From the NCBI GenBank assembly GCA_023426265.1, contig JAFABA010000121.1:1-53696 (forward strand): a stretch of DNA of 53,696 nt. Direction: 5' to 3'. How positions within the stretch are numbered: position 1 is the first letter of the stretch; each line of letters starts with the position of its first letter. The translations under genes were made by a program, and so were the position numbers. The DNA is from Bacillota bacterium. Lineage in GTDB: Bacteria > Bacillota > Clostridia > Christensenellales > CAG-138. The notes beneath the pieces were generated by a model that was not told the origin of the DNA, searched no databases, and saw only the letters and a program-made list of their open reading frames with translations. Positions 13,411 through 41,267 of the stretch are shown piece by piece.

Positions 13411-14070
13411 CTATAAAAGGCCCATCTTCCTCATCATTAAAGTCTGCGATTCGATATCGGGCATCAGGAAGAAGCGGCCGGACACATATTTGTCGAAATC
13501 CACAAGTACCGTTTCAAGCATCAGTATCGTATCGCCGGAAGCTCCGTACATGACTGCAGGCAAATTCATAAGCGCGCCCGCCATGTCAATAACAAGGCCG
13601 GGTACGGAACTATTGATATAAAGGCCGGTCAGCGTGGCTATCGCGTTGATGTACGAGCAGCACAGGATGTTGGCAATCTCCATCAGCGCGGAATGCTGCA
13701 GGTCGGAAGGGAACGGGATATTTTTGTCGTTCTCCACGCCCAGCATTTCAATGAGCATGTCCGACATCGCGATCGAATCCTCGAGCGGCTGTACAAACAG
13801 GATGGCGCCGGTGATATCGCCCGACATTTCCACCAGGGAACCGGTCATGATCTGCTCGGCGTCGCCCAACAGCGTCCCCATATCCTCCAGCGAGCAGAAC
13901 CAGGCCTTGGGAACCCGAATATCGATGGGGCGGTTGAGCATTCCGGCCAGAGCCGTGGCCGCGTTCGCCGCGCCGATATTTTCAAGTTCCTTTAGAAAAT
14001 CCAGCTGTATCTCATTTATTTCGCCGGGTTTTATGAAAACCACCCTCCCTGCCGCCATCCCTGTGGACAT
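13411..14070 (-). CDS. cheC: CheY-P phosphatase CheC
   Basis: The duplicated CheC motif is present (LKELENIGAANAATALAGML and ALMEIANILCCSYINAIATL). It lies adjacent to cheD. Confidence 0.85.
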   Translation of the reverse strand: MSTGMAAGRVVFIKPGEINEIQLDFLKELENIGAANAATALAGMLNRPIDIRVPKAWFCSLEDMGTLLGDAEQIMTGSLVEMSGDITGAILFVQPLEDSIAMSDMLIEMLGVENDKNIPFPSDLQHSALMEIANILCCSYINAIATLTGLYINSSVPGLVIDMAGALMNLPAVMYGASGDTILMLETVLVDFDKYVSGRFFLMPDIESQTLMMRKMGLL

Positions 14071-14141
14071 TTGCGGCTATACGATGCGGCCGACATCCAT
14101 TTTTGCGCATAGTACGGCCATTGTGTTTCGTGCTATTCTAT

Positions 14142-14168
14142 ATATCGTCATTTCATTCGGAAGCGTTA
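14142..14168 (-). promoter_or_regulatory. Candidate sigma-28 (SigD/FliA)-type promoter of the cheC-cheD-cheY-cheA-HD-GYP operon
   Basis: The minus strand reads TAAC-N15-GACGATAT, compared with the consensus TAAA-N15-GCCGATAT. It shares the 15-mer AAATGACGATATATA with the cheR upstream region. Confidence 0.45.
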
Positions 14169-14251
14169 ACAGTTCTTTAATACTTTTTGGCGAAATCTCG
14201 GAGAATACCGCATATGGCGCGAAAGGAAAGGATTCCGGGGACAAAAGGCAT

Positions 14252-14278
14252 TAATATCCCGGCTAAAAATGCCGATAC
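14252..14278 (+). promoter_or_regulatory. Candidate sigma-28-type promoter upstream of the fliK-like operon
   Basis: TAAT-N15-GCCGATAC (7/8 match to the -10 consensus GCCGATAT), about 160 nt upstream of the ATG at 14436. Confidence 0.45.
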
Positions 14279-14435
14279 AAGTACCATCGGCGCGCGAATG
14301 CCTGGCAGGACGCCATCATAGGTTGAGCGCGAAGTACTTCCAGCCAAGGCCCCAAAAGGCACGGCCGGCGCATCCACCATATCGATTTGGCGATATAGGC
14401 GTTCGGATATTTGAAATAAAAAAACGAGGACCGCC

Positions 14436-16379
14436 ATGAGAATAACGCTCACTCAGGAAATCGCGTCTTCCTCCGCCGCAAAAGCGCCGCAAAACCCGCT
14501 TACAATCGGGCAGGGAGAGGTTATCCGCGCGACTGTCGTTTCCGTAGAGGGGGAGAACGTATCCCTCAAAACGGAGGACGGGCGCGTATTCAGCGCGCGC
14601 CTTCAGCCGGGCACCGTCCTGATGGAACACGATACGGTTGAGCTGATGGCGGGAGGCGAGCGGCAACAGCCGGTGCTTCGCGTGGTGTTCGTGGAACCGG
14701 GCCGGAGCGGCATCTCCGCGCGGGAAGCGGCCGCGGCAACCACACAGGCCGCGCTGACACAGCAGCTGAAAGAAGCGTTTGGGCAGATGAACCTGAAACC
14801 CACGCCCAAGCTCGTCTCCCTCGCCGCGGAAATTTTGAGAAACTACCCGATAGACGCCGGAACGGCTGCGTTTTTTGCCGCAAACAACATACCGGCAACA
14901 AATGAAAGCATCCGCGCGTTTAGGTCCATTCTGAACGGCAAACAATTCGGCACGGCCTTTTATGAAGTCGCGCAAGGTACCGCTTCCGCGCTCGGGCAGG
15001 CCGCTGCAGTTGCGGCGGCAGAACATATCCAAACGCCCCTTCTGCAAAGCCAGCCGGACAGTTCCGCACAGCCCAACCCGGCGGGCCGGCCCGCTGCAGC
15101 GCAGGAAGGGCAATCCGGCATTCTTCAGGCTGTGCAGATCGAAACAAGCGCTGCGTTGCAGGGACAGCAAGCGCAGGCCATTCCGCAGCAAGGAGATACG
15201 GCGTTAATCCAGGCGGAAGGCCAGGCACAGATTTTAACCGGGCAGCAGCAGATTGAGGCGGGCCAACCGCAGGGTCAGACCCCGGCGCAGCCACAGGCGG
15301 AGGGCGCTCCCGTAACCGGGCAGGAGAAGCCTGTATTATCCATGGCGGAAGAACCGACTGCCGGAAAAGAACAGATCCAGCCGCAGGCGCAGGGTACATT
15401 GCGGCCGCAGGAAGCTCCGGCAATGGAGAAGCCCGCCCTGGCCTTGCAGGGAGAACCGGTTTCCGGAGTGGGCAAAGAGCAGCCTCAGGCCCCGGGCAAA
15501 GAGACGGTCGCTCCCGCGCCCGAACAACCCGTATTGGAGGGGAAGGCAGCTGCTGGTACTGCGGCGGAACAAATCCAGCCTCAAAAGGCGGCTGCCGGGC
15601 GACCGGACACACAGAAATCGCAGGAAGGTGTTTTGACGATGACCGATGCGGCACAGCCCGGACCGGAGCAGGCGGGCGTCGGCGATACGGTTGCGCATAA
15701 TACGGAAACAGCGCCCAATCCCGATTTTGCGCTCGAAGAATCCTCCAATTTCCAAAACGCGGCGAAGAGCGAAGAAAAGGCGGTTCTAAAGCAGCTGCTG
15801 GAGCTGTTCGCGAAAGCGGGGGAGGACCTTGATGCGCAAACATTGAAAAAATCCGTGGAAGAAACGCCCCAAAAGCTTTTGGAGCTTCAGAAGCTGATTA
15901 AAAATACCGATATCCATACGCAGGAGACCCTCGCCTCCCGTTTTCAGGAACTCACCGCGCAGGCCAAGCTTGCGGAGGACATTTCCCGGTTTGTGTTTGT
16001 GCAGATTCCCATCCATCTCAAAGAGTACGGATCGGCGGAGCTTTACATCTATAAAAGGAACCGGAGGGAAAAGGGCGCGGAGCGGCAAAGTACATCCGTG
16101 GTGCTGGGGCTCTCCACGCAGAACCTGGGCCGGGTGGAAGCCATGCTGCGCATGGAAAACCGCGATCTTTCCCTGGACATTAGGGTGCAGAATGAAAAAA
16201 CGCTCGCGGCTTTTCGGGAGAACTCCGGCGAACTGCAACGCTCTTTTTCGGAACTTCGCTTTCAGTTAAAGGAATATAAGGTCTCGCCGCTTCGGGAAAA
16301 AACGACGCCGCTCAACGTGGAAGAAAAACTGGTACGGATGCATGCGCCCTCCGGCGCCGGCGTGGATGTGATGATATGA
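14436..16379 (+). CDS. Flagellar hook-length control protein FliK-like
   Basis: 647 aa. A long Gln/Pro/Ala-rich low-complexity centre fits a ruler-like region. The C-terminal segment (VLGLSTQNLGRVEAMLRMENRDLSLDIRVQNEKTLAAFRENSGELQRSFSEL) resembles the Flg_hook/FliK C-domain. An ACGAGGA RBS is present, and the gene is followed by a FlhB-C-like gene. Confidence 0.6.
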   Translation: MRITLTQEIASSSAAKAPQNPLTIGQGEVIRATVVSVEGENVSLKTEDGRVFSARLQPGTVLMEHDTVELMAGGERQQPVLRVVFVEPGRSGISAREAAAATTQAALTQQLKEAFGQMNLKPTPKLVSLAAEILRNYPIDAGTAAFFAANNIPATNESIRAFRSILNGKQFGTAFYEVAQGTASALGQAAAVAAAEHIQTPLLQSQPDSSAQPNPAGRPAAAQEGQSGILQAVQIETSAALQGQQAQAIPQQGDTALIQAEGQAQILTGQQQIEAGQPQGQTPAQPQAEGAPVTGQEKPVLSMAEEPTAGKEQIQPQAQGTLRPQEAPAMEKPALALQGEPVSGVGKEQPQAPGKETVAPAPEQPVLEGKAAAGTAAEQIQPQKAAAGRPDTQKSQEGVLTMTDAAQPGPEQAGVGDTVAHNTETAPNPDFALEESSNFQNAAKSEEKAVLKQLLELFAKAGEDLDAQTLKKSVEETPQKLLELQKLIKNTDIHTQETLASRFQELTAQAKLAEDISRFVFVQIPIHLKEYGSAELYIYKRNRREKGAERQSTSVVLGLSTQNLGRVEAMLRMENRDLSLDIRVQNEKTLAAFRENSGELQRSFSELRFQLKEYKVSPLREKTTPLNVEEKLVRMHAPSGAGVDVMI

Positions 16380-16693
16380 GCGAAAACCAGAAGCCGGATG
16401 CGCAGGCGGCAGCGCTCAAATACGACATGGGCAGGGACAACGCCCCTTTGATTGTGGGCCTGGGGCAGGGCTATGTCGCGCAAAAGATGCTTGAGACCGC
16501 AGAAGAAAATAAAATCCCCATCGTGGAGGACGAGTCGCTCCTCTCCGTTTTGAACCGGTTCAGCACGGGCGATGAAATTCCGGAGGAACTCTACCAGGTG
16601 GTAGCACAGGTGCTTGTATTTATCGGCAAGCTGGACGGCAGCACGCCAAAGCGCTATCAACTATCAGACATACAAAAAGGAATGTACAGATGA
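16376..16693 (+). CDS. Stand-alone FlhB C-terminal-domain protein (EscU/YscU/HrcU switch-domain family, YlqH-like)
   Basis: 105 aa. It aligns by eye to the post-NPTH part of the full-length FlhB in this window: AAALKYDMGRDNAPLIVGLGQGYVAQKMLE..IPIVED..L...L......IPEELYQVVAQVL versus AVALSYKEGVNGAPVVVAKGQDFLARRIKE..VEIVEN..LARNL...IGDEVPEDLYQAVAEIL. Confidence 0.8.
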   Translation: MSENQKPDAQAAALKYDMGRDNAPLIVGLGQGYVAQKMLETAEENKIPIVEDESLLSVLNRFSTGDEIPEELYQVVAQVLVFIGKLDGSTPKRYQLSDIQKGMYR

Positions 16694-17730
16694 CAGTTTC
16701 CGTCAACCCGCTTATTCCCACCCCCAATACGGTAGGTACGGGGAAGGCGTCTTCCGGCGCAAATTCCGCCGCGTTTTCAGCGCTGCTTTCCGCACAGCTT
16801 TCGGAACAGCTTTCCGGGCTGAGGTTTGATGGCGCTGAAGGAGGCGAAGGAATTGCCTCCGCGGAAAGTACCGCCATGCTCGCGCAGGTGCCCGCGCTTC
16901 TTTCCTCGGCGGGGGAAGAAGGGGGGGACTTAAAGAGCGCCGTCATGCTGTTTTTCATGATGATGGGCACGGGCGCTTCCGCAAGCTCCATGGGGGCGGC
17001 CATGTCCAGCCTTTCGGCGGCTCTTACAAACAGTTCCGCGGATACGCTGGAAAATATGCGCTTCGACGTATTGAACGGGCTGGTTTCGGGCGGATATGAC
17101 CGTGCCGGGCTCCAGCGCGCAAACGATATGGTGTTTGGCGGCAGTTCAAACGAGGCGGTAACGCCGTTTTCCGCCTCAAAACCCGCAAACCCAATCATTA
17201 CGAGCCAGCAGGGCAATCGAAGCGCCGGACGTTACCGCAGCGTCATCGACCAGTTTCAGGTGCCGGCAAACCCGCGCTACGCCGTCAATAAAAACGGAAA
17301 CAACGATACGTACTGCAACATATTCCTCTGGGACGTCACCAAGGCCATGGGCGCGGAAATTCCCCATTATGTCGATCCCGTCACGCAGGAAGCCCGGGCA
17401 TATCCCGATGTGAGCGGCGCGAAGGAACTCAACGCCAACGGCATATACGACTGGCTGGGAGCCAAAGGCGCCGACTACGGCTGGGTGCAGGTCACGCCGG
17501 AACAGGCGCAGCAATACGCGAACCAGGGCTTTCCCGTCGTCACGGCATGGAAAAATACGGAGGGTGGCCACGGGCATGTGCAGGTCGTTTCTCCATCCAA
17601 TGACGGGCAATACGACCCTTCCCGCGGCGTGATGATCGCCCAGGCGGGGAGGACACTCACCAATTATGCGCCCATCACCGATATCTACAGCGAAAGCCTA
17701 GGGAGCGTAGTCTATTACGCGCATGCGTAA
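16690..17730 (+). CDS. Hypothetical protein: disordered Ala/Ser/Gly-rich N-half plus C-terminal Cys/His (papain-like amidase-like) domain
   Basis: 346 aa with a 4-nt overlap with the upstream gene and no signal peptide. NDTYCNIFLWDVTKAMG and, about 85 aa later, EGGHGHVQVVSP look like a nucleophile Cys / general-base His pair of CHAP/NlpC-P60-type enzymes. The family assignment is not verified. Confidence 0.4.
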   Translation: MTVSVNPLIPTPNTVGTGKASSGANSAAFSALLSAQLSEQLSGLRFDGAEGGEGIASAESTAMLAQVPALLSSAGEEGGDLKSAVMLFFMMMGTGASASSMGAAMSSLSAALTNSSADTLENMRFDVLNGLVSGGYDRAGLQRANDMVFGGSSNEAVTPFSASKPANPIITSQQGNRSAGRYRSVIDQFQVPANPRYAVNKNGNNDTYCNIFLWDVTKAMGAEIPHYVDPVTQEARAYPDVSGAKELNANGIYDWLGAKGADYGWVQVTPEQAQQYANQGFPVVTAWKNTEGGHGHVQVVSPSNDGQYDPSRGVMIAQAGRTLTNYAPITDIYSESLGSVVYYAHA

Positions 17731-17749
17731 TGCAAAAGAAAACTTTTCC

Positions 17750-17776
17750 TAAAGTCGCACGGCATTATGCCGATTA
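17750..17776 (+). promoter_or_regulatory. Sigma-28 (SigD/FliA)-type promoter of the fliD operon
   Basis: TAAA-N15-GCCGATTA, close to the consensus TAAA-N15-GCCGATAT, about 55 nt upstream of the fliD ATG. Confidence 0.65.
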
Positions 17777-17829
17777 AGTATGTAGCGTAAAATCGCAATT
17801 TTTAGGCCAAAGGTAAGGAGTGATACAGA

Positions 17830-19368
17830 ATGGCGACAAATGGAATCAACGCTAATTTGATCCGTTTGAATGGTCTTTCCTCGGGGCTCGATACCGAGGC
17901 GATTGTAACGAGCCTGTTGAAAATCGATCAACTGAAGGTAGATAAACAGTTCAAGCTGGCGGAAGAACTGGAGTGGAAGGGGGACGCCTACCGGGCGATT
18001 AACCTGAAGCTTAAGAGTTTTCGCGAGACATACATGACCACACAATTCCCGGCTACCAATATGTTCTCGTCCTCCGCTTACAACGCGTTCGCGGTGACGA
18101 TGGATACCCAGACCAGCGCGGTGAGCATCACGGCGGGCAGCAACGCTTCCGTGGGGCAGCTTACCATCGATAGCATTGAACGTCTTGCGACCGCGGCTAA
18201 GGTATCGAGCAGCGGGGAAATGTTCGACGCTACCAAAAACATCAACTCCACGCTGGAAGAGGCGTTTGGGAATATTGAGGATGTTTTTGTAGACGGCAAG
18301 ATTTCCTTCTCCATTAACGACAAAACGTTTACGTTTTCCAAGGACACGACCATCAGCAGCATGGTGAACAAAATCAATTCTTCGGATGCGGGCGTGACCG
18401 TGGGCTATTCCAGCTTAACGCGCAAGTTTACCATCACCAGCAAGGCCACCGGCACGGATGGCAAGATTGATATTAAAAATATCAGCGGCAAGGCCTTTGC
18501 GGAATCTGAGGAAACCGTGGGCGCATCGGCGTTTAAGATTGCCGTGGTGAACAAGACGGGAGATAATGCGAAGCTGACCATCGAAGGCGTACCGGTGGAG
18601 AGAACCTCCAATACGTTCACCATCGACGGCATCACCTATACACTGAAGGATCAATCGACCACCCCAATCAAGTTCAGCGTGGCGCGGGATGTGGACAGCG
18701 TATACAACAAGATCAAAGGCTTTATCGATGGATACAACTCTCTTATTGCAGAACTGCAGGCCAAGCTTGATGAGGAAGTCTATTCCGATTATGGACCGCT
18801 TACGGATGCGGAACGGGACGAGCTTTCCGAGACCCAGATTGCCCAGTGGGAAGAGAAGGCAAAGAGCGGCCTGCTGCGCAGCGACAGCGGAGTCCGTGCG
18901 CTGCTTCAGGATCTCAGGAGCGCGTTTTACAGCGTGGTGGAGGGAGCGGGCGGCAGCGCCGCAAGCATCGGCCTGGAGACCGGCTATATGTCGAAGACGG
19001 GCCAGATCGTGATCAACGAAGCCAAGCTCAAGAATGCGCTGGCCAACAACCCGGATCAGGTGGCGAACATATTCACCAAGGTGAACAAGGCCGAAGATGG
19101 GAGCACAAAATATAAAGAATCCGGCCTTGTGACGAGGATGTCGGGCATATTCAACTCCTATCTTACCAACAGCGTCGATACCACGTTGGAAACCAACGGA
19201 AGAGCGGTTACCGAAGCCAACAACAGGCTCGACCAGCTGGAAGATTGGCTGGCCAAGAACGAAGAAAAGTACTACGCAAGGTTCACCGCTATGGAGACGG
19301 CTTTGGCAAAGCTCAACAGCCAGACAAGCTGGATCAGCTCCCTGCTCGGATCCCAAGCTCAAGGTTAA
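17830..19368 (+). CDS. fliD: Flagellar filament cap protein FliD
   Basis: 512 aa. The N-terminus (GLSSGLDTEAIVTSLLKIDQLKVDK), the C-terminus (YYARFTAMETALAKLNSQTSWISS) and an AAGGAG RBS support the call. Confidence 0.9.
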   Translation: MATNGINANLIRLNGLSSGLDTEAIVTSLLKIDQLKVDKQFKLAEELEWKGDAYRAINLKLKSFRETYMTTQFPATNMFSSSAYNAFAVTMDTQTSAVSITAGSNASVGQLTIDSIERLATAAKVSSSGEMFDATKNINSTLEEAFGNIEDVFVDGKISFSINDKTFTFSKDTTISSMVNKINSSDAGVTVGYSSLTRKFTITSKATGTDGKIDIKNISGKAFAESEETVGASAFKIAVVNKTGDNAKLTIEGVPVERTSNTFTIDGITYTLKDQSTTPIKFSVARDVDSVYNKIKGFIDGYNSLIAELQAKLDEEVYSDYGPLTDAERDELSETQIAQWEEKAKSGLLRSDSGVRALLQDLRSAFYSVVEGAGGSAASIGLETGYMSKTGQIVINEAKLKNALANNPDQVANIFTKVNKAEDGSTKYKESGLVTRMSGIFNSYLTNSVDTTLETNGRAVTEANNRLDQLEDWLAKNEEKYYARFTAMETALAKLNSQTSWISSLLGSQAQG

Positions 19369-20746: not shown

Positions 20747-20826
20747 CGCCCGGCAAACGGTTTGGCCGTTGAGGAGAACTCCCCCATAGACCTTTGACGC
20801 TTATTTATTAGGAAAGAGGATTGGCC

Positions 20827-21276
20827 GTGAGAATTAAGGAAACGTCAACGGTATTCGCGAATGCCCAGGCGGTCGGCACATCGGAAAAAAAGGTGGCGTC
20901 CGGGTTTGCGCGCGAATTCTCCCGCCAAAAGCATGACTCGGATACCGCGGAGTATGAGCAGTACCTCAAAGCGCTCAAAGGGAAGATACTCGATCAGGGC
21001 GAAATCGTCGGCAAAAAGGCGGATATCGCGGAGTTTTATAAATACCGGGCGTTGATCAGCGAGCTGCTCAACGAAACCGTCAGCAACGCGTACCTGTTCA
21101 GCAAGACCAGCCAGTTTGACCAAAGAGGCCGCCATAAGGTGTTTGCGCTCATCCGAAAAGTCAACGGCAAGCTGGACGAGCTTGCGGCGGAGATTTTAAA
21201 GAACGAGGCCGAAAATATCCGGCTTTTGAGCATTGTGGACGATATTCGGGGCCTGATTGTGGATTTGTATTATTAA
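20827..21276 (+). CDS. YaaR/DUF327 family protein
   Basis: About 150 aa. The pattern ...LDELAAEILKNEAENIRLLSIVDDIRGLIVDLYY and the preceding helical region resemble DUF327 proteins, which are often seen in flagellar loci. The start is GTG 20827 or TTG 20821. Confidence 0.5.
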   Translation: MRIKETSTVFANAQAVGTSEKKVASGFAREFSRQKHDSDTAEYEQYLKALKGKILDQGEIVGKKADIAEFYKYRALISELLNETVSNAYLFSKTSQFDQRGRHKVFALIRKVNGKLDELAAEILKNEAENIRLLSIVDDIRGLIVDLYY

Positions 21277-23951: not shown

Positions 23952-23981
23952 TTGAATGCGCGCGATTTGTTATGCTATACT
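23952..23981 (+). promoter_or_regulatory. Candidate sigma-A type promoter of the SLT-flgB...fliA operon
   Basis: TTGAAT (23952-23957), an 18-nt spacer, then TATACT (23976-23981), 27 nt before the ATG at 24008. Confidence 0.45.
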
Positions 23982-24007
23982 CATTATGTATAAGAAGGGT
24001 TTGCTGT

Positions 24008-24607
24008 ATGGAAACGGTTAAGGATATATATTTAGCCAAATTGCAGCAGGTGCAATCCGCTCTCAATGCCAGCGCGGCAAAGGCGGGTTTTACCGCTCCA
24101 CGTTTTTCCAGCCTGCTTGCGGGCACGCTGGCCGCGCAGACCCAAATCCAGGCGCAAATACAGCCTGCGGCTGTGCAGAGCGCTTCCTCCTACGATGGGC
24201 TCATCAAGAGCGCGGCGCAGGAGAACGGGCTGGATGAAGCCCTGATCAAAGCCGTCATACAGGCGGAATCAAGCTATCGCACGGACGCGGTGTCTTCCGC
24301 CGGCGCGGAAGGGCTCATGCAGTTGATGCCGGGAACGGCGGCGTCGCTGGGCGTAACAAACTCCTTTGACCCCGCGCAGAATATCAGCGGCGGGAGCAAG
24401 TACTTAAAAAACCTGATCGACCGGTTTGGAGATCTGCGCCTTGCTTTGGCGGCCTACAATACGGGCCCAAGCCGGATATCGGGGCTGAACATCGCCGATC
24501 CGGACGACGCCTCCGAATACGCAAAAATTAACGAGCGCGTACGGGGTTATGTTTCCAAGGTACTATCCAACTACGAGGCGTATCGTTCCCAGGAAGGAGT
24601 GGTTTGA
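24008..24607 (+). CDS. Lytic transglycosylase (SLT domain) protein, flagellar-operon associated
   Basis: IKAVIQAESSYRTDAVSSAGAEGLMQLMPGTA...AYNTGP is the SLT catalytic Glu-Ser and AYNxG motifs. The N-terminus has no obvious Sec signal. It lies immediately upstream of flgB. Confidence 0.8.
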   Translation: METVKDIYLAKLQQVQSALNASAAKAGFTAPRFSSLLAGTLAAQTQIQAQIQPAAVQSASSYDGLIKSAAQENGLDEALIKAVIQAESSYRTDAVSSAGAEGLMQLMPGTAASLGVTNSFDPAQNISGGSKYLKNLIDRFGDLRLALAAYNTGPSRISGLNIADPDDASEYAKINERVRGYVSKVLSNYEAYRSQEGVV

Positions 24608-26325: not shown

Positions 26326-27207
26326 GTGTTCTCAACAGAACGAGGCGCAAAGAACGGAACTTTGCTAATGAGGAATACGCAGCCGCTGGCGCCGCTTTTG
26401 CCGCCGCAACTTTTATATGAAAGGCCCCAAAGGGGCAGGGACCACCGTAAGACCGGCAGAACCAAACGGATTTGGCTCTTAGTAACGGTTATTATGGTGG
26501 CTGTTTTGTTATGCGGTTGTTCTGTGCTCAATGAGAATACCGCCTCTTCCAACGGGCCGTTCGGGGGATTGCTGGGGGACAGGAGCGATTCGCTCGATAT
26601 CCTGATGCTGCTCACCATATTGAGCGTGCTGCCCTCCATACTCATCATGCTGACGTGCTTTACGCGCATCATCATCGTGCTTTCGCTGACGCGCAACGGC
26701 ATGGGTCTGCAGCAGATGCCGCCCAACCAGGTGCTCGTTGGCCTGGCGCTGTTTCTGACGCTATTCATCATGTCCCCCATTGTGGATCAAATAAAGACTG
26801 AAGCGTACGAACCCTATGTCAATGGCGTCATCACCCAGGAGGTCGCGGTGGACCGCGCCATGGAGCCGGTGCGCGAATTCATGTTCAGGCAGACGTATAA
26901 ATCGGACCTGAAATTCTTCCTTACCGCCTCCGGCCAGCCGGATACGGTCGAGGCCCTTGAAAATATCCCGAACACGACGCTTATTCCCGCATTTATCACC
27001 AGCGAGATCAAGCACGGGTTTGAAATCGGGTTCTATATTTACATTCCTTTTATCGTCATCGATATGGTGGTGGCGAGCACGCTGATGGCGATGGGCATGA
27101 TGATGCTTCCGCCTGTAATCATATCGCTGCCCTTTAAACTGTTGCTGTTTGTAATGGTGGATGGGTGGACGCTTACGGTCCGGTCCCTCATTTCAAGTTT
27201 CGGGTAA
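26326..27207 (+). CDS. fliP: Flagellar type III export apparatus protein FliP
   Basis: LLTILSVLPSILIMLTCFTRIIIVLSLTRNGMGLQQMPPNQVLVGLALFLTLFIMSP. The start is uncertain (GTG 26326 or ATG 26368). The signal/TM segment begins at about RIWLLVTVIMVAV. Confidence 0.9.
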   Translation: MFSTERGAKNGTLLMRNTQPLAPLLPPQLLYERPQRGRDHRKTGRTKRIWLLVTVIMVAVLLCGCSVLNENTASSNGPFGGLLGDRSDSLDILMLLTILSVLPSILIMLTCFTRIIIVLSLTRNGMGLQQMPPNQVLVGLALFLTLFIMSPIVDQIKTEAYEPYVNGVITQEVAVDRAMEPVREFMFRQTYKSDLKFFLTASGQPDTVEALENIPNTTLIPAFITSEIKHGFEIGFYIYIPFIVIDMVVASTLMAMGMMMLPPVIISLPFKLLLFVMVDGWTLTVRSLISSFG

Positions 27208-27265
27208 TTTTGAACGCGGGGATCGGTTGGGCAAAAAAGGCAATACGGCAATTGGGGTTTTGAGC

Positions 27266-27532
27266 ATGGATCAGTCAACGGTAATCAAAGTCATGCAGGA
27301 TGCGGTGACCACCATCATGACGGTGTCGGCGCCTCCGCTCATTATCGGCATGGTGGTGGGCATTATTGTTTCCATATTCCAGGCCACGACTCAGATCAAC
27401 GAGCAGACGCTGGCGTTCGTACCTAAGATCATCGCCATACTGCTTGCGCTTTTAGTGTTCGGCGGCTGGATGCTTACGGGTCTTTCCGATTTTACGCTGC
27501 GCTTGTTCGAATATATCGGCACCGCGCGTTAA
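27266..27532 (+). CDS. fliQ: Flagellar type III export apparatus protein FliQ
   Basis: 88 aa. MDQSTVIKVMQDAVTTIMTVSAPPLIIGMVVGIIVSIFQATTQINEQTLAFVPK. Confidence 0.9.
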   Translation: MDQSTVIKVMQDAVTTIMTVSAPPLIIGMVVGIIVSIFQATTQINEQTLAFVPKIIAILLALLVFGGWMLTGLSDFTLRLFEYIGTAR

Positions 27533-27538
27533 AAAACG

Positions 27539-28330
27539 ATGGACAGAATCGTAGACACCGTCGTACTGAATATCGATTACTTCGTGCTGATATTCCTGCG
27601 GGTTTCAGCGTTGATTTTTTCTTCCCCCATATTCGGGCGAAAAACGCTGCCCAACACGCTCAAGATTCTGCTGTGCGTTACGCTCGCTTATGTGGTGTTT
27701 GCGGCGGACCCGAATCCTCCGGCAATCACGTACCGCAACGTACTGGAATACGTGCTGCTGTGCGTAAAGGAACTGCTGTTCGGGCTGGTACTTGGGTATG
27801 TGACCACGCTGATCTTCAGCATCCCGCAGACGGCGGGGCACGTGATCGATATGCAGATGGGTTTTGGCATGGTGAATGTGTTCGACGTGCAGTCAAACAT
27901 CAGCGTCCCCGTCACGGGCAACTTTCTCTATACCGCCATGATGCTCTCCTTTTTTGCGGTGGACGGGCATCACCAGCTGATTTATATATTGCAGAGCACC
28001 TTCTCCTACATTCCCGTGGGGCAGGTTACGTTAAACCCAGCGCTGGGCGTTTCGGCGCTTGAGGTATTCGCCCTTGCGTTTGTGCTCGCCGCCAAGGTGG
28101 CCATGCCCATGATCGCGGCCGGGCTGATGGGGGAGATCATCATGGGCATCGTGGTGCGCACCTCGCCGCAGATGAACGTGTTTGTGGTGGGCATCCCCCT
28201 CAAGATCATAATGGGGTTCCTGGCGCTTTTGCTGCTGCTGCCGGTGTATGTGAACTTTACCAATACGCTGTTTAACAACATGTTCGAGTCCATTCATTAC
28301 ATGTTTGGCGGATTGGCGGCTCCCGCATGA
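27539..28330 (+). CDS. fliR: Flagellar type III export apparatus protein FliR
   Basis: 263-aa polytopic membrane protein in the conserved fliQ-fliR-flhB position. RVSALIFSSPIFG...GHVIDMQMGFGM. Confidence 0.9.
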   Translation: MDRIVDTVVLNIDYFVLIFLRVSALIFSSPIFGRKTLPNTLKILLCVTLAYVVFAADPNPPAITYRNVLEYVLLCVKELLFGLVLGYVTTLIFSIPQTAGHVIDMQMGFGMVNVFDVQSNISVPVTGNFLYTAMMLSFFAVDGHHQLIYILQSTFSYIPVGQVTLNPALGVSALEVFALAFVLAAKVAMPMIAAGLMGEIIMGIVVRTSPQMNVFVVGIPLKIIMGFLALLLLLPVYVNFTNTLFNNMFESIHYMFGGLAAPA

Positions 28331-29397
28331 GCCAGGCAAACGGTGACCGTACAGAAAAAGCGACGCCCAAAAAGCGGAAGGACGCGCGCGACAAAGGCCA
28401 GATATTCAAAAGCGTGGACCTGACCACCGCATTCTCGCTGCTTGTGCTGTTTTTCATATTGTCCATCGCAGGAACGCTGATGGTGGACGGCATGAAGAAC
28501 ATGGCAACCCGGTATTTTTCGGCCGCAGCACCCGAACCGTTCAATGTCGCGAATATACATGCCACGTTTAAGGACGTGTATATCCAGTTTGTCCTTATAC
28601 TGCTGCCGGTGCTGGCCGCGGCGGCGGCCGCGGGAATCATATTCAATTTCCTGCAGGTGGGCGCGCTGTTCACCGCGAAGGCGATACAGCCCAAGTTTTC
28701 CCGCATCAGCATGGCGGAGGGGTTCAAGCGGATATTTTCAAAAAAGACGCTGATTGACCTCTTAAAATCCCTGGTGCGCCTGACGGTGATCGTGAAGGTT
28801 GCGTATGACGAGTACACGTTGCGCATACAGGGCACGCCCTCGCTGATGTACCAGGAGCTGGATTTCTCCATCGACGCCACCTGGGATATGATACTCAGTA
28901 TCGCGTTCAAGATCGCCATTGCCCTTGCGATACTGGGCCCCATCGATTACTTCCTGCAATGGCGGCAGTATGAACGAGACCTTATGATGACCAAGCAGGA
29001 GGTCAAGGACGAGTATAAGATGACCGAAGGCAACCCCCAGATCAAGGGACGAATCCGGCAGAAACAGCGGCAGATGAGCAGCATGCGCATGATGCAGGCC
29101 GTTGCGGACGCGGATGTGGTCATCACCAACCCCACGCATTTTGCCGTTGCGCTTTCCTATAAGGAGGGGGTGAACGGCGCCCCGGTCGTCGTAGCGAAGG
29201 GCCAGGATTTCTTAGCCAGGCGCATCAAGGAAAAGGCCGCGGAGTATCACGTGGAGATTGTGGAAAACAAGGCCCTCGCCCGCAACCTGTACTTCTTCTG
29301 CGAAATAGGCGATGAGGTGCCGGAGGATTTATACCAGGCGGTGGCCGAGATTCTCGCGTATGTGTATCGCCTGAAACATCCTGAGACTAGGAGGTGA
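28327..29397 (+). CDS. flhB: Flagellar type III export switch protein FlhB (full length)
   Basis: 356 aa. It has the N-terminal TEKATPKKRKDARDKGQ, four TM segments, and the NPTH autocleavage motif (VVITNPTHFAVAL). Confidence 0.95.
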   Translation: MSQANGDRTEKATPKKRKDARDKGQIFKSVDLTTAFSLLVLFFILSIAGTLMVDGMKNMATRYFSAAAPEPFNVANIHATFKDVYIQFVLILLPVLAAAAAAGIIFNFLQVGALFTAKAIQPKFSRISMAEGFKRIFSKKTLIDLLKSLVRLTVIVKVAYDEYTLRIQGTPSLMYQELDFSIDATWDMILSIAFKIAIALAILGPIDYFLQWRQYERDLMMTKQEVKDEYKMTEGNPQIKGRIRQKQRQMSSMRMMQAVADADVVITNPTHFAVALSYKEGVNGAPVVVAKGQDFLARRIKEKAAEYHVEIVENKALARNLYFFCEIGDEVPEDLYQAVAEILAYVYRLKHPETRR

Positions 29398-34360: not shown

Positions 34361-34660
34361 GTGGCGTTTGAAGGCATAGGCTCCAAGATCATGATCCACA
34401 AGGTGACGGACTTTTCCAAAGAGGCGAGCAACCTGCAAAAAAGCGGCGAAATGGCGCAGGCGCATATCCAAAGCCGCGCTGCGCACGACGCACAGATCGC
34501 GCAGCAGCAGGTCACCGATGTATACGAGCCCTCCAGCGTGGCCATCCATCGGGAAAAAGAGCGGGAAAAGCGGCAGCAGGAACAGAAGCGGGAAGAAAAA
34601 AAGCGGGAAGCCCATAAGCCCCTGCCCGGGGAACCCACCAAAATCGATATCGAGATATAG
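34361..34660 (+). CDS. Hypothetical small charged protein (99 aa)
   Basis: GTG start with a strong AAAGGAGGAGG RBS. No TM segment is seen. The C-terminus is Lys/Glu/Arg-rich (REKEREKRQQEQKREEKKRE). No family was recognised. Confidence 0.55.
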   Translation: MAFEGIGSKIMIHKVTDFSKEASNLQKSGEMAQAHIQSRAAHDAQIAQQQVTDVYEPSSVAIHREKEREKRQQEQKREEKKREAHKPLPGEPTKIDIEI

Positions 34661-34685
34661 GCGGATACGCCTGGAAGAGGGTAGC

Positions 34686-35240
34686 ATGGACTATACGTAT
34701 TATTTGTTTGCTTTTTTTGTATTTCTTCTTGTGTGCGCGACGGTGTATTTGAGCAGCATGCTCAAAAGGAACCAGAAGGAGGAAGCTGTAAAGCTTCCGC
34801 CGCCCGAGGATTTTCGTGAGAGGGAAGAGGAACTTCTTGCCCTGTTCCATAAGCTTGAGCGCGCGATGAGCGTTATGCAGGAAGAAATGGAGGAAACGCG
34901 CGGGGGGATCCGCGCGGACCGGGAGGAGGTCGCCTCCATGCTCGAACGCATGCAGCACCTGACGACAGGCATTCGCAGCAGCAGCGAGCAGCAGCGCCCG
35001 GAAGAACCAGTCAAACGCGGCCGCGGTCGGCCCAGGACGGTGAACCTCCCGCAGGAAGCGGAACGGGCGGCTCTGGTATTGGACCGTAAAAAGCCCGGCC
35101 CCAAAAAGAAGACGCTGCGAGACCGGGTGCTGGAGCTCTATGAAACGGGCCTCGCTGCGGACCGTATCGCGCAGGAACTCTCCATTTCCCGCGGGGAAGT
35201 GGATCTTGCGCTGGGCATCAAACAGGAAAAAAGCATATAA
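34686..35240 (+). CDS. Hypothetical membrane-anchored protein with AT-hook-like motif and C-terminal HTH
   Basis: 184 aa with a GGAAGAGGG RBS. It has an N-terminal TM segment (YYLFAFFVFLLVCATVYLSSML), a coiled-coil-like acidic segment, KRGRGRPRT, KKPGPKKK, and a C-terminal LRDRVLELYETGLAADRIAQELSISRGEVDLAL. Confidence 0.6.
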   Translation: MDYTYYLFAFFVFLLVCATVYLSSMLKRNQKEEAVKLPPPEDFREREEELLALFHKLERAMSVMQEEMEETRGGIRADREEVASMLERMQHLTTGIRSSSEQQRPEEPVKRGRGRPRTVNLPQEAERAALVLDRKKPGPKKKTLRDRVLELYETGLAADRIAQELSISRGEVDLALGIKQEKSI

Positions 35241-36913: not shown

Positions 36914-37333
36914 ATGCAGGTAAGGCAATGCAGGATATGCGGCAAGTTGTTTCAATCCATGGGCAATTATGTTTGCCTCGAATGCGAGGAAAAACTGGAC
37001 CAGGAATTCCGCTTGGTACGGGATTACCTGTATGACCATCGAGAGGCGGATATCACGGAGATTTCAAGAGAGACGGGAGTGAGCGAACGGAGCATCCTGC
37101 AGTTTCTCAAGGAAGAACGGCTGACGCTTTCTGTTCCAAGCGAGAATATCCGCTGCGAGCATTGCGGAAAGCCGGTTATGGGCGGGAAAATCTGTGAGGA
37201 TTGCAGGAACAGATTATCAAGAATATTAGAAGGCGTGATCGAAGCAAACGCAGCAAGGCTGGCGGAAAAGAAAGCGTCTGCCGAGGTAATGAGCTACCAG
37301 GGCCGCAAACATTTTGACAATAACAGAAGATAG
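36914..37333 (+). CDS. Flagellar operon zinc-ribbon protein (YvyF-like)
   Basis: 139 aa. It has CRICGKLF...CLECEE and CEHCGK...CEDC cysteine pairs flanking an HTH-like centre. It lies directly upstream of flgM, as yvyF does in B. subtilis. Confidence 0.65.
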   Translation: MQVRQCRICGKLFQSMGNYVCLECEEKLDQEFRLVRDYLYDHREADITEISRETGVSERSILQFLKEERLTLSVPSENIRCEHCGKPVMGGKICEDCRNRLSRILEGVIEANAARLAEKKASAEVMSYQGRKHFDNNRR

Positions 37334-40676: not shown

Positions 40677-41267
40677 ATGAACTCGCTTAGCATACATACC
40701 CAGCGTGCTGTGATCGAAATTACATCACGCCCCGCCAAAATGTACGTCGAACACAAACGACCCAATTTCAAAATCAAACGTACCGATCCGAAAATGAGAA
40801 TCGAACGGAAAATGCCTTCGTTCGATATCAAATGGGAGGATGTCAGGAATACCAGCGGTCAGGCGTCCACGCTCCAATTGGGAAAAAATTTTGCTGAAAA
40901 AGGAAAACAAAAGGCTTTAGAAGCGATCCGTTCCATTGTGGAGCGCGGAGATATTTTGAAGGACGTTACTGATCCTAAGGCGCTTGAAAAAGTGGCGGTT
41001 TCCGTTTCCGTTAAGGACATGCCGGAACTCAATGTGGGGCTCATGCCCAAGCAAAAGGCACGTATCGAATGGGACCCCGGCTATTGTACCATAGAATGGA
41101 CGGACCCCGTTCTGCAGATCGAATGGGATAAGGACTTCAGGCCAACGATCGAATGGGAACCTTACGCGGTGGAAGTACGCCTCAGACACAGGCCTTTGGT
41201 GCAAATTAGAGTCAATTTGGAGCGCATACCCGGCGCCGTAGGCGTCAAGGTGGATCAGGAAGTGTGA
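40677..41267 (+). CDS. YviE-like / DUF6470-like protein of the flgL-fliW interval
   Basis: 196 aa, in the same position as yviE in the B. subtilis flgK-flgL-yviE-fliW-csrA operon. It contains a four-fold 'IEW' repeat (ARIEWDPGYCTIEWTDPVLQIEWDKDFRPTIEWEPY). Confidence 0.5.
   Translation: MNSLSIHTQRAVIEITSRPAKMYVEHKRPNFKIKRTDPKMRIERKMPSFDIKWEDVRNTSGQASTLQLGKNFAEKGKQKALEAIRSIVERGDILKDVTDPKALEKVAVSVSVKDMPELNVGLMPKQKARIEWDPGYCTIEWTDPVLQIEWDKDFRPTIEWEPYAVEVRLRHRPLVQIRVNLERIPGAVGVKVDQEV

Follow-up and report, generated by a model that had tools for sequence, protein, structure and literature searches.

A gene for a predicted wall peptidase in a flagellar locus

The DNA analysed here is a stretch of 53,696 nucleotides from a Christensenellales bacterium of the class Clostridia (contig JAFABA010000121.1, assembly GCA_023426265.1; hereafter the window) with a large motility locus. 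Among the genes of this locus lies an open reading frame (ORF) for a 346-residue protein, which is composed of three parts: an N-terminal region of the export type, a helical middle and a C-terminal Cys-His domain resembling Tae1, an amidase of the T6SS (type VI secretion system). The start codon of the ORF overlaps the TGA stop of a stand-alone 105-residue FlhB-C gene in the tetranucleotide ATGA at 16690-16693, and an overlap of the same type at 16376-16379 joins the 105-residue gene to a FliK-like gene. Since ATGA overlaps are present at both junctions, the three genes form a translationally coupled unit. An original prediction, made from the sequence of the window, had described both the four-nucleotide overlap and a fliK-like/FlhB-C operon context, and the family matches of the two upstream genes, PF02120 in the one and PF01312 and TIGR00789 in the other, bear this out. 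The gene directly downstream was identified as fliD in a domain scan.

Of FlhB, the 105-residue protein covers the C-terminal end only (PF01312 positions 258-335, E=1.8e-18; TIGR00789, flhB_rel) and aligns to chain B, the fragment after the autocleavage site, of the FlhB-C crystal structures 3B0Z and 3B1S. Its extent is exactly that of the FlhB CC polypeptide left after autocleavage, and the 'AP' and 'LY..VA.VL' segments are retained, which line the substrate-docking pocket.

Table 1 Position of the ORF, the parts of its product and the associated features within the window.
Feature	Position	Strand	Remarks
CDS of the 346-residue protein	16690..17730, stop included	+	ATG start
Low-complexity N-terminus, residues 1-78	16690..16923	+	pLDDT 33-66; small, non-polar start MTVSVNPLI
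Candidate gate-recognition motif F29-S-A-L-L33	16774..16788	+	F-x-x-x-hydrophobic conserved; putative FlhB-C docking
Four predicted helices, residues 79-149	16924..17136	+	pLDDT 78-91
Predicted papain-fold Tae1-like domain, residues ~155-346	17152..17727	+	AF2, Foldseek, hhalign
Cys209, predicted nucleophile, codon TGC	17314..17316	+	N-terminal end of helix 209-219
His296, predicted general base, codon CAT	17575..17577	+	first residue of strand 296-301
Gln318, candidate third polar active-site residue, codon CAG	17641..17643	+	next strand, 315-319
FliK-like gene, 647 residues, first of the three-gene unit	14436..16379	+	PF02120 Flg_hook
Stand-alone FlhB-CC-like gene, 105 residues	16376..16693	+	PF01312, TIGR00789; coupled to the ORF
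TAAT-N15-GCCGATA, putative sigma-28-type promoter upstream of the FliK-like gene	14252..14277	+	conserved position
Sigma-28-type motif TAAA-N15-GCCGAT, ahead of fliD	17750..17774	+	56 nt ahead of the fliD start codon
Gene for an SLT lytic transglycosylase, immediately upstream of flgB	23972..24607	+	PF01464, E=3e-28

Fold, active site and conservation of the C-terminal domain

The C-terminal part of the protein represents a previously undescribed catalytic domain family that is absent from the models of Pfam, NCBIfam and PHROGs: the 346-residue protein has no family in scans of the first two, and its C-terminal domain has none in the third. The original prediction had likewise been able to place the protein in no named family. 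Of the profiles which it had proposed as checks, neither CHAP (PF05257) nor NLPC_P60 (PF00877) matches the window protein at E<=1; CHAP yields sub-threshold matches in 7 of 121 family members, the best with E=0.0041, and NLPC_P60 is not found among the families listed for the 121 members (best 25 of 43). The sequences of the PDB were searched with the protein as a single sequence (phmmer) and with the 121-sequence profile, and no match was obtained at E<=10 with either. There are 410 clusters at 90% identity related to the protein, all annotated as hypothetical, and the domain has 1,585 representatives at 50% identity.

AlphaFold2 (AF2) models the full-length protein with a predicted local distance difference test score (pLDDT) of 83 and a predicted template modelling score (pTM) of 0.78, and the C-terminal domain alone, residues ~155-346, with a pLDDT of 94.3 and a pTM of 0.91, which is consistent with the globular C-terminal part expected from the sequence. 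A Foldseek search of the PDB with the domain model returned 17 matches at E<=0.001, all of them chains of Tae1/Tse1 from Pseudomonas aeruginosa (probability 1.0, E from 4.8e-6 to 3e-4, TM-score 0.53 normalised to the query and 0.70 to the target), and with the full-length model Tae1/Tse1 is again the top match. Tae4, CHAP endolysins and other papain-like cysteine peptidases appear only at E>0.01, and a search of the viral structures in BFVD gave a weak NlpC/P60 match only (E=0.016). In addition, hhalign aligned a 23-sequence alignment of the domain with the Tae1 sequence, which is identical to that of the PDB entries, with a probability of 90.6% and E=1.3e-6, pairing Cys209 with Cys30 and His296 with His91 of Tae1. 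The sequence searches of the PDB found nothing, and only the fold comparison and the profile-to-sequence alignment reveal the link to Tae1.

The predicted active site also appears to follow the papain-like pattern. The motifs NDTYCNIFLWDVTKAMG and EGGHGHVQVVSP are both found in the protein and place the putative nucleophile Cys209 and the putative general base His296 87 residues apart, close to the ~85 residues originally suggested for such a pair. In the full-length model Cys209 opens the helix 209-219, just as the equivalent Cys60 opens the helix 60-70 in the model of the domain alone, and Gln318 sits on the strand that follows the one begun by His296. In these models, a cysteine at the start of a helix, a histidine at the start of a strand and Gln318 on the next strand make up the arrangement of papain and NlpC/P60 enzymes. 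The three residues are conserved in 248, 249 and 249, respectively, of 250 aligned C-terminal domains, and Asn210, Asp215, Trp255, Trp265, Gly280 and Gly320 are invariant in all 250. Of the papain-fold amidases that had been considered, the Tae-like option in particular gains support, because the predicted fold is closest to Tae1, and the domain is very probably a Cys-His peptidase acting on the cell wall.

The N-terminal half and its putative export signal

The first ~170 residues had been predicted to be disordered, rich in Ala, Ser, Gly and Met and free of a hydrophobic signal peptide, as is the N-terminus of flagellar type III substrates. Disorder is indeed likely for residues ~1-78, which are modelled with low confidence, but not for residues 79-149, where AF2 places four confident helices (79-93, 98-112, 117-133 and 138-149). 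This helical middle domain is confined to the flagellar subfamily of the proteins, and binding to the rod or to the hook tip and covering of the enzyme as a lid are candidate roles for it. The description of the composition was accurate, residues 1-150 being rich in Ala, Ser, Gly, Leu and Met, and so was that of the signal peptide: with the Kyte-Doolittle hydrophobicity heuristic on which the signal-peptide calls are based, the best 19-residue window reaches 1.27 at residues 84-102, no hydrophobic core of the signal-peptide type is seen, and an N-terminus of the signal-peptide type is absent from all of the 120 close family members. A membrane anchor at the Met-rich patch 81-112 was considered and rejected, given the same best hydropathy of 1.27 and a hydrophobic run of only ~11 residues in the relatives. 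An N-terminus like that of FlgJ was likewise discarded, as no Rod-binding match occurs among the families listed for the 121 members (best 25 of 43).

Early flagellar subunits dock on a pocket of FlhB-C via a short hydrophobic gate-recognition motif, which is located at least ~26-30 residues from the small-hydrophobic extreme N-terminus (PMC8983047). In an otherwise variable region of the present family, the column of Phe29 holds a phenylalanine in 120 of 121 aligned sequences, at a median position of 31, and is followed at +4 by Leu, Phe, Met or Ile in 120/120 and at +8 usually by a hydrophobic residue as well. The F-x-x-x-hydrophobic form of the gate-recognition motif was reportedly described by Evans and co-workers in 2013. 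Its extended version, F-x-x-x-hydrophobic-x-x-x-hydrophobic, occurs within the first 70 residues of 118 of the 120 members, and FliE of the window has a similar motif, FTDIL, at residues 28-32. The nearly invariant F-x-x-x-L near residue 30, together with the lack of signal-like N-termini in the family, strengthens the notion of an N-terminus of the type III kind, and on these sequence features export of the peptidase through the flagellar channel seems somewhat more probable than not.

Association with flagellar loci

One genome per species was scanned, giving 227 relatives, and the best 80 of the 227 loci were mapped by tblastn with the proteins of the window; the counts below refer to loci with enough flanking sequence (77 for fliD and 74 for the upstream genes). 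The gene fliD lies within 1.5 kb downstream of the homologue and on the same strand in 70/77 loci, the FlhB-CC gene directly upstream in 48/74 and the FliK-like gene upstream in 53/74. Even loci without these neighbours show flagellar genes nearby, with the single exception of L038, and two independent look-ups of homologous loci gave the same flagellar picture. The loci are labelled as Christensenellaceae, Feifaniaceae, Oscillospiraceae, Sporobacter and unclassified Clostridia. Flagellar loci of Christensenellales and related Clostridia contain the full-length family as a constant element, and an association of the protein with the flagellum can be considered highly likely. None of the three findings that the original prediction had named as speaking against it, namely a fold unrelated to papain-like hydrolases, a Cys and His not conserved in homologues and homologues mainly outside motility loci, was obtained, and its interpretation is supported overall.

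Several of the loci deserve separate mention. An intact copy of 317 residues is found in the cultured Christensenella intestinihominis AF73-05CM02 (L068, 7587-8540), between a fliK-like gene and fliD; in this fliK-like/peptidase/fliD/fliS locus the active site is apparently functional. The type strain AF73-05CM02 is nevertheless described as non-motile (PMC7937921). A fliS-like gene directly follows the homologue in L013, L016, L017 and L020, and in L017 a more distant downstream fliD precedes a second copy of fliS. One locus, L074, is labelled Burkholderiales bacterium MAG137; its gene order is of the Clostridia type and its match coordinates are nearly those of L062 and L066. The contig has probably been mis-binned and would then not represent a proteobacterial copy.

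Homologues of the domain outside flagella

Distant homologues match the protein only from about residue 150 onward, and within a broader family of wall-hydrolase domains the flagellar clade forms a subfamily of its own. In eight of ten long distant homologues that were scanned, the domain is joined to PG_binding_1, LysM, a GH73 glucosaminidase, SLT, a C39-like peptidase or a VgrG3-like C-terminal domain; of the other two, one has only DUF4214 and a VgrG3-like domain and one has no Pfam match. Classical signal peptides are present in 13 of 135 remote representatives, and one remote homologue (P0231) has a significant WXG100 N-terminus (E=2.2e-8). The domain is further carried by 21 phage contigs from IMG/VR (L083-L103), several of which are very large (177-372 kb), mostly as stand-alone proteins of ~180 residues and in one contig (L084, 1543-3102) fused to an M23 metallopeptidase. 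The fusions to wall domains, the signal peptides, the WXG100 N-terminus and the phage contexts together place the module outside the cell, where it would act on the wall.

Other remote homologues with N-termini that look like WXG100 (P0208, P0249 and P0189) give weak Pfam matches only. Such N-termini ahead of the catalytic domain suggest wall-degrading effectors secreted by a type VII system, and in P0246 the catalytic domain is combined with a VgrG3-like C-terminal domain.

The SLT gene and the remainder of the locus

A second wall enzyme is encoded in the same locus directly before flgB (Table 1), with 24008 as its probable start. The SLT protein has no signal peptide and begins with a conserved N-terminal helix, followed by F33-x-x-x-L37 (numbered from 24008) in 34 of 35 homologues. 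It resembles CwlQ of Bacillus subtilis in domain type and may be a second wall enzyme exported via the type III system of the flagellum. In relation to the peptidase it is probably either a partner or a rival.

The minus strand carries cheA, cheY, cheD and cheC at ~10.4-14.1 kb. On the plus strand the FliK-like gene, the FlhB-CC gene, the ORF and fliD are followed by fliS, a FliT/FlgN-like gene, cheW, a DUF327 gene, a further cheW, cheR and cheB, after which come the SLT gene, flgB, flgC, fliE, fliO and fliP. A short ORF at 27161-27532 occupies the place of fliQ and is assigned by position only, and is followed by fliR and, at 28327-29397, the full-length flhB; three further ORFs stand at the usual places of flhA, flhF and flhG, again by position only, and precede fliA and two rod genes of the flgF/G type. 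The last genes of the series are flgM, flgN, flgK, flgL, DUF6470 and fliW. No Rod-binding protein of the FlgJ type was detected among the scanned ORFs of the window, which does not include the fliF-to-flgE block, and neither T6SS genes nor genes of the immunity type were seen in the window or the homologous loci; the examined neighbours all belong to flagella or chemotaxis. Several poorly characterised genes are also embedded in the flagellar locus: the DUF327 gene (20821-21276), which is syntenic in nearly all related loci, an ORF with a weak DUF6115 match (34518-35240), a double zinc-ribbon ORF between flgG and flgM (36914-37333) and the DUF6470 gene after flgL (40677-41267).

Promoter motifs and timing of expression

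The gene had been proposed to be the last one before a sigma-28 promoter of fliD, and a motif of this type is indeed found between the two (Table 1); as a putative promoter it marks the end of the transcription unit. The bare pattern is not rare, with two occurrences in the window versus 0.67 expected by chance. Between the homologue and fliD, the strict pattern recurs in 6 of 70 loci only, those of the closest relatives, and hence is not family-wide. The candidate promoter ahead of the FliK-like gene is kept at the same place in L003, L007, L008 and L009 despite differences in the spacer. Positions 14000-18000 were also scanned for promoters and terminators; no signal exceeded the shuffled expectation, and there was no terminator after the ORF.

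In some loci the homologue is itself the first gene of its unit, and there a perfect TAAA-N16-GCCGATA lies directly upstream of it (L031, ~7795; L036, ~7889; L041, ~7465) or a near-perfect motif is present (L049 and L053); with the pattern used, no sigma-28 motif was found upstream in most other loci. A FliK-like gene under a promoter of the late class would be unusual.

Proposed function and alternative explanations

Taken as a whole, the protein is best read as a flagellum-associated peptidoglycan endopeptidase that is exported through the flagellar type III system, a reading held with some, though not high, confidence, in which we infer both the enzymatic activity and the export. The peptidase would be made in the cytoplasm, where its substrate is absent, and its F-x-x-x-L motif would dock it on FlhB-C, perhaps with the stand-alone FlhB-CC protein, translated along with it, as the initial docking site. 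It would then be unfolded, pass through the flagellar type III channel and refold at the wall, where it could locally cut stem peptides or cross-links. Tae1 cleaves the bond between gamma-D-Glu and meso-diaminopimelic acid (mDAP), and by analogy the gamma-D-Glu-diamino acid bond is the best guess for the flagellar enzyme and a likely one. The peptidase would probably work with the SLT lytic transglycosylase of the locus, which would cut the glycan strands, and the aim might be to create or enlarge an opening for rod and hook or else to reshape the wall near flagella.

Narrower versions of this proposal are more tentative. That the peptidase opens the wall specifically for the rod is doubtful on the present data. 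Similarly speculative is a more elaborate scheme, in which it would be the first flagellum-dedicated Cys-His endopeptidase and a substrate recognised through the gate-recognition motif, would form with a co-exported SLT enzyme a two-enzyme kit for peptide and glycan that opens the thick Gram-positive wall for rod or hook, and would have the FlhB-CC protein as its cytoplasmic docking partner or timer.

Several points weigh against the proposed function. The assignment of the fold depends on a predicted structure and one remote profile match, given that NlpC/P60 is unmatched and CHAP stays below threshold. The F-x-x-x-L motif by itself carries little information, and the SLT gene before flgB is an equally obvious candidate for the wall enzyme. 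The candidate sigma-28-type promoters suggest late-class expression of the peptidase, which in the classic hierarchy follows completion of the hook, and an accessory role like that of CwlQ would therefore fit better than penetration of the wall by the rod; a peptidase made late could still reach nascent basal bodies in cells that keep building flagella. Finally, CwlQ is dispensable for flagellar assembly according to the B. subtilis CwlQ paper, and according to recent work even Salmonella does not strictly require the hydrolase activity of FlgJ.

The same promoter motifs could instead indicate a sigma-28-controlled autolysin that is co-regulated with motility, comparable to LytF, LytC and LytD, and serves cell separation or wall turnover after leaving the cell by a non-flagellar route and acting away from the flagellar base. 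Several wall hydrolases of B. subtilis belong to the SigD regulon, and the catalytic domain is a general wall-hydrolase module elsewhere; however, a Sec-type signal or a wall-binding domain (LysM, SH3 or PG_binding), normal for such autolysins, is present in 0/120 members, the gene is fixed in position between the fliK-like and flhB-C genes and fliD, and the N-terminal F-x-x-x-L motif is conserved, all of which makes this explanation unlikely.

The resemblance to a type VI toxin, the closest solved structure, raises the question of an antibacterial effector, a Tae1-like toxin released via the flagellar export channel against the cell walls of bacteria nearby. Non-flagellar proteins can be exported by flagellar systems as well, and the occurrence of related domains behind a WXG100 N-terminus and beside a VgrG3-like C-terminal domain is an effector-like architecture. 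Such a role is nevertheless improbable in view of the fliK-like, flhB-C and fliD neighbours with no adjacent immunity-like gene, of a helical middle domain specific to the flagellar subfamily and of a synteny with assembly genes that many genera strictly maintain, in contrast to the variability usual for effector loci. It could also be imagined that the protein stays in the cytoplasm as a cysteine protease or acyl-modifying enzyme and acts not on peptidoglycan but on a flagellar protein such as the FliK-like or FlhB-C-like product or the filament. While the missing classic secretion signal, the translational coupling to the FlhB-C and FliK-like genes and the diversity of papain-fold substrates, with protein-cleaving cysteine proteases among the weak Foldseek matches, would all be compatible with such an enzyme, the domain is joined in other proteins to wall-related partners throughout, Sec signals occur in some homologues, a peptidoglycan amidase is the one strong structural neighbour and the homologue persists in loci without an adjacent fliK-like or flhB-C gene, so that this option appears very improbable.

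An exported flagellar wall peptidase would bear on a recognised gap. The original prediction had called the enzyme that opens the wall an open question in this lineage, and the literature agrees: no dedicated flagellar hydrolase is known in Gram-positives according to the B. subtilis CwlQ paper, and a 2026 preprint calls the transit of Gram-positive flagella through peptidoglycan poorly understood. The gene family is a concrete candidate for how these flagella deal with a thick wall, and it offers testable features in Cys209, His296 and F29/L33, a clear partner gene in the SLT gene and an intact copy in at least one cultured species, C. intestinihominis. Beyond flagella, a widespread wall-hydrolase domain emerges (~1,600 clusters at 50% identity) that Pfam, NCBIfam and PHROGs do not contain. 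It is found in Sec, WXG100, phage and flagellar settings and can help with annotation and with understanding how one catalytic module moves between secretion routes.

Comparison with known systems

The closest relative by structure is Tae1/Tse1 of P. aeruginosa (PA1844), the best and only strong match, with a TM-score of ~0.70 over Tae1 and aligned catalytic Cys and His residues. Local motifs are also similar in the two proteins, namely C-x-x-F-x-x-x-V-x-x-x-x-G and G-H-V-x-V-V, and Tae1 is exported without a Sec signal by a dedicated machine, as is proposed for the peptidase. On the other hand, identity in the structural alignments is ~18% with no sequence search linking the two, the domain of the flagellar peptidase is ~45 residues longer and contains insertions, and its gene is fixed in flagellar loci of a Clostridia host with no T6SS or Tai1-like immunity gene seen nearby. 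The peptidase folds, as modelled, like Tae1 but differs from it in sequence and in having neither an immunity gene nor a T6SS beside it. The CHAP and NlpC/P60 peptidases, such as the CHAP domain of LysK, LytF and CwlO, belong to the same class of papain-like Cys-His folds, likewise act on peptidoglycan and include CHAP endolysins with weak structural matches to the domain, whereas the peptidase family lacks SH3 and LysM domains for targeting as well as a Sec signal, has no listed PF00877 match and stays below the PF05257 threshold.

In its overall organisation the protein is reminiscent of FlgJ from Salmonella and other beta- and gamma-proteobacteria, which combines a rod cap with a GH73 domain: a non-enzymatic N-terminal part precedes a C-terminal wall hydrolase, the gene lies among flagellar genes and a Sec signal is missing. 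For FlgJ, export as a rod-type substrate takes place via the flagellar type III system (PMC8517470), the route also proposed for the peptidase. In contrast to FlgJ, the window protein has neither PF10135 nor PF01832, which are also not found among the families listed for the 121 members (best 25 of 43), it is a predicted Cys-His enzyme for the wall peptide while FlgJ acts on glycan, and its gene is located beside fliD and a fliK-like gene instead of the rod genes, with promoter signals that look late-class.

A functional parallel closer in lineage is CwlQ (YjbJ) of B. subtilis, an SLT enzyme without Sec or Tat signals whose expression depends on SigD and whose secretion through the flagellar type III system depends on FliF and needs the N-terminal ~35 residues; swarming requires CwlQ. 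In its candidate sigma-28 motifs and its N-terminal features the peptidase parallels CwlQ, but CwlQ is a lytic transglycosylase, whereas the peptidase has no SLT match and differs in fold and chemistry. The peptidase can be likened in its working to both FlgJ and CwlQ as a flagellum-tied wall hydrolase without a Sec signal and is a member of neither family. With a Tae1-like cysteine peptidase, whose chemistry has so far not been linked to flagella, the flagellar clade is a possible new type of flagellar wall enzyme.

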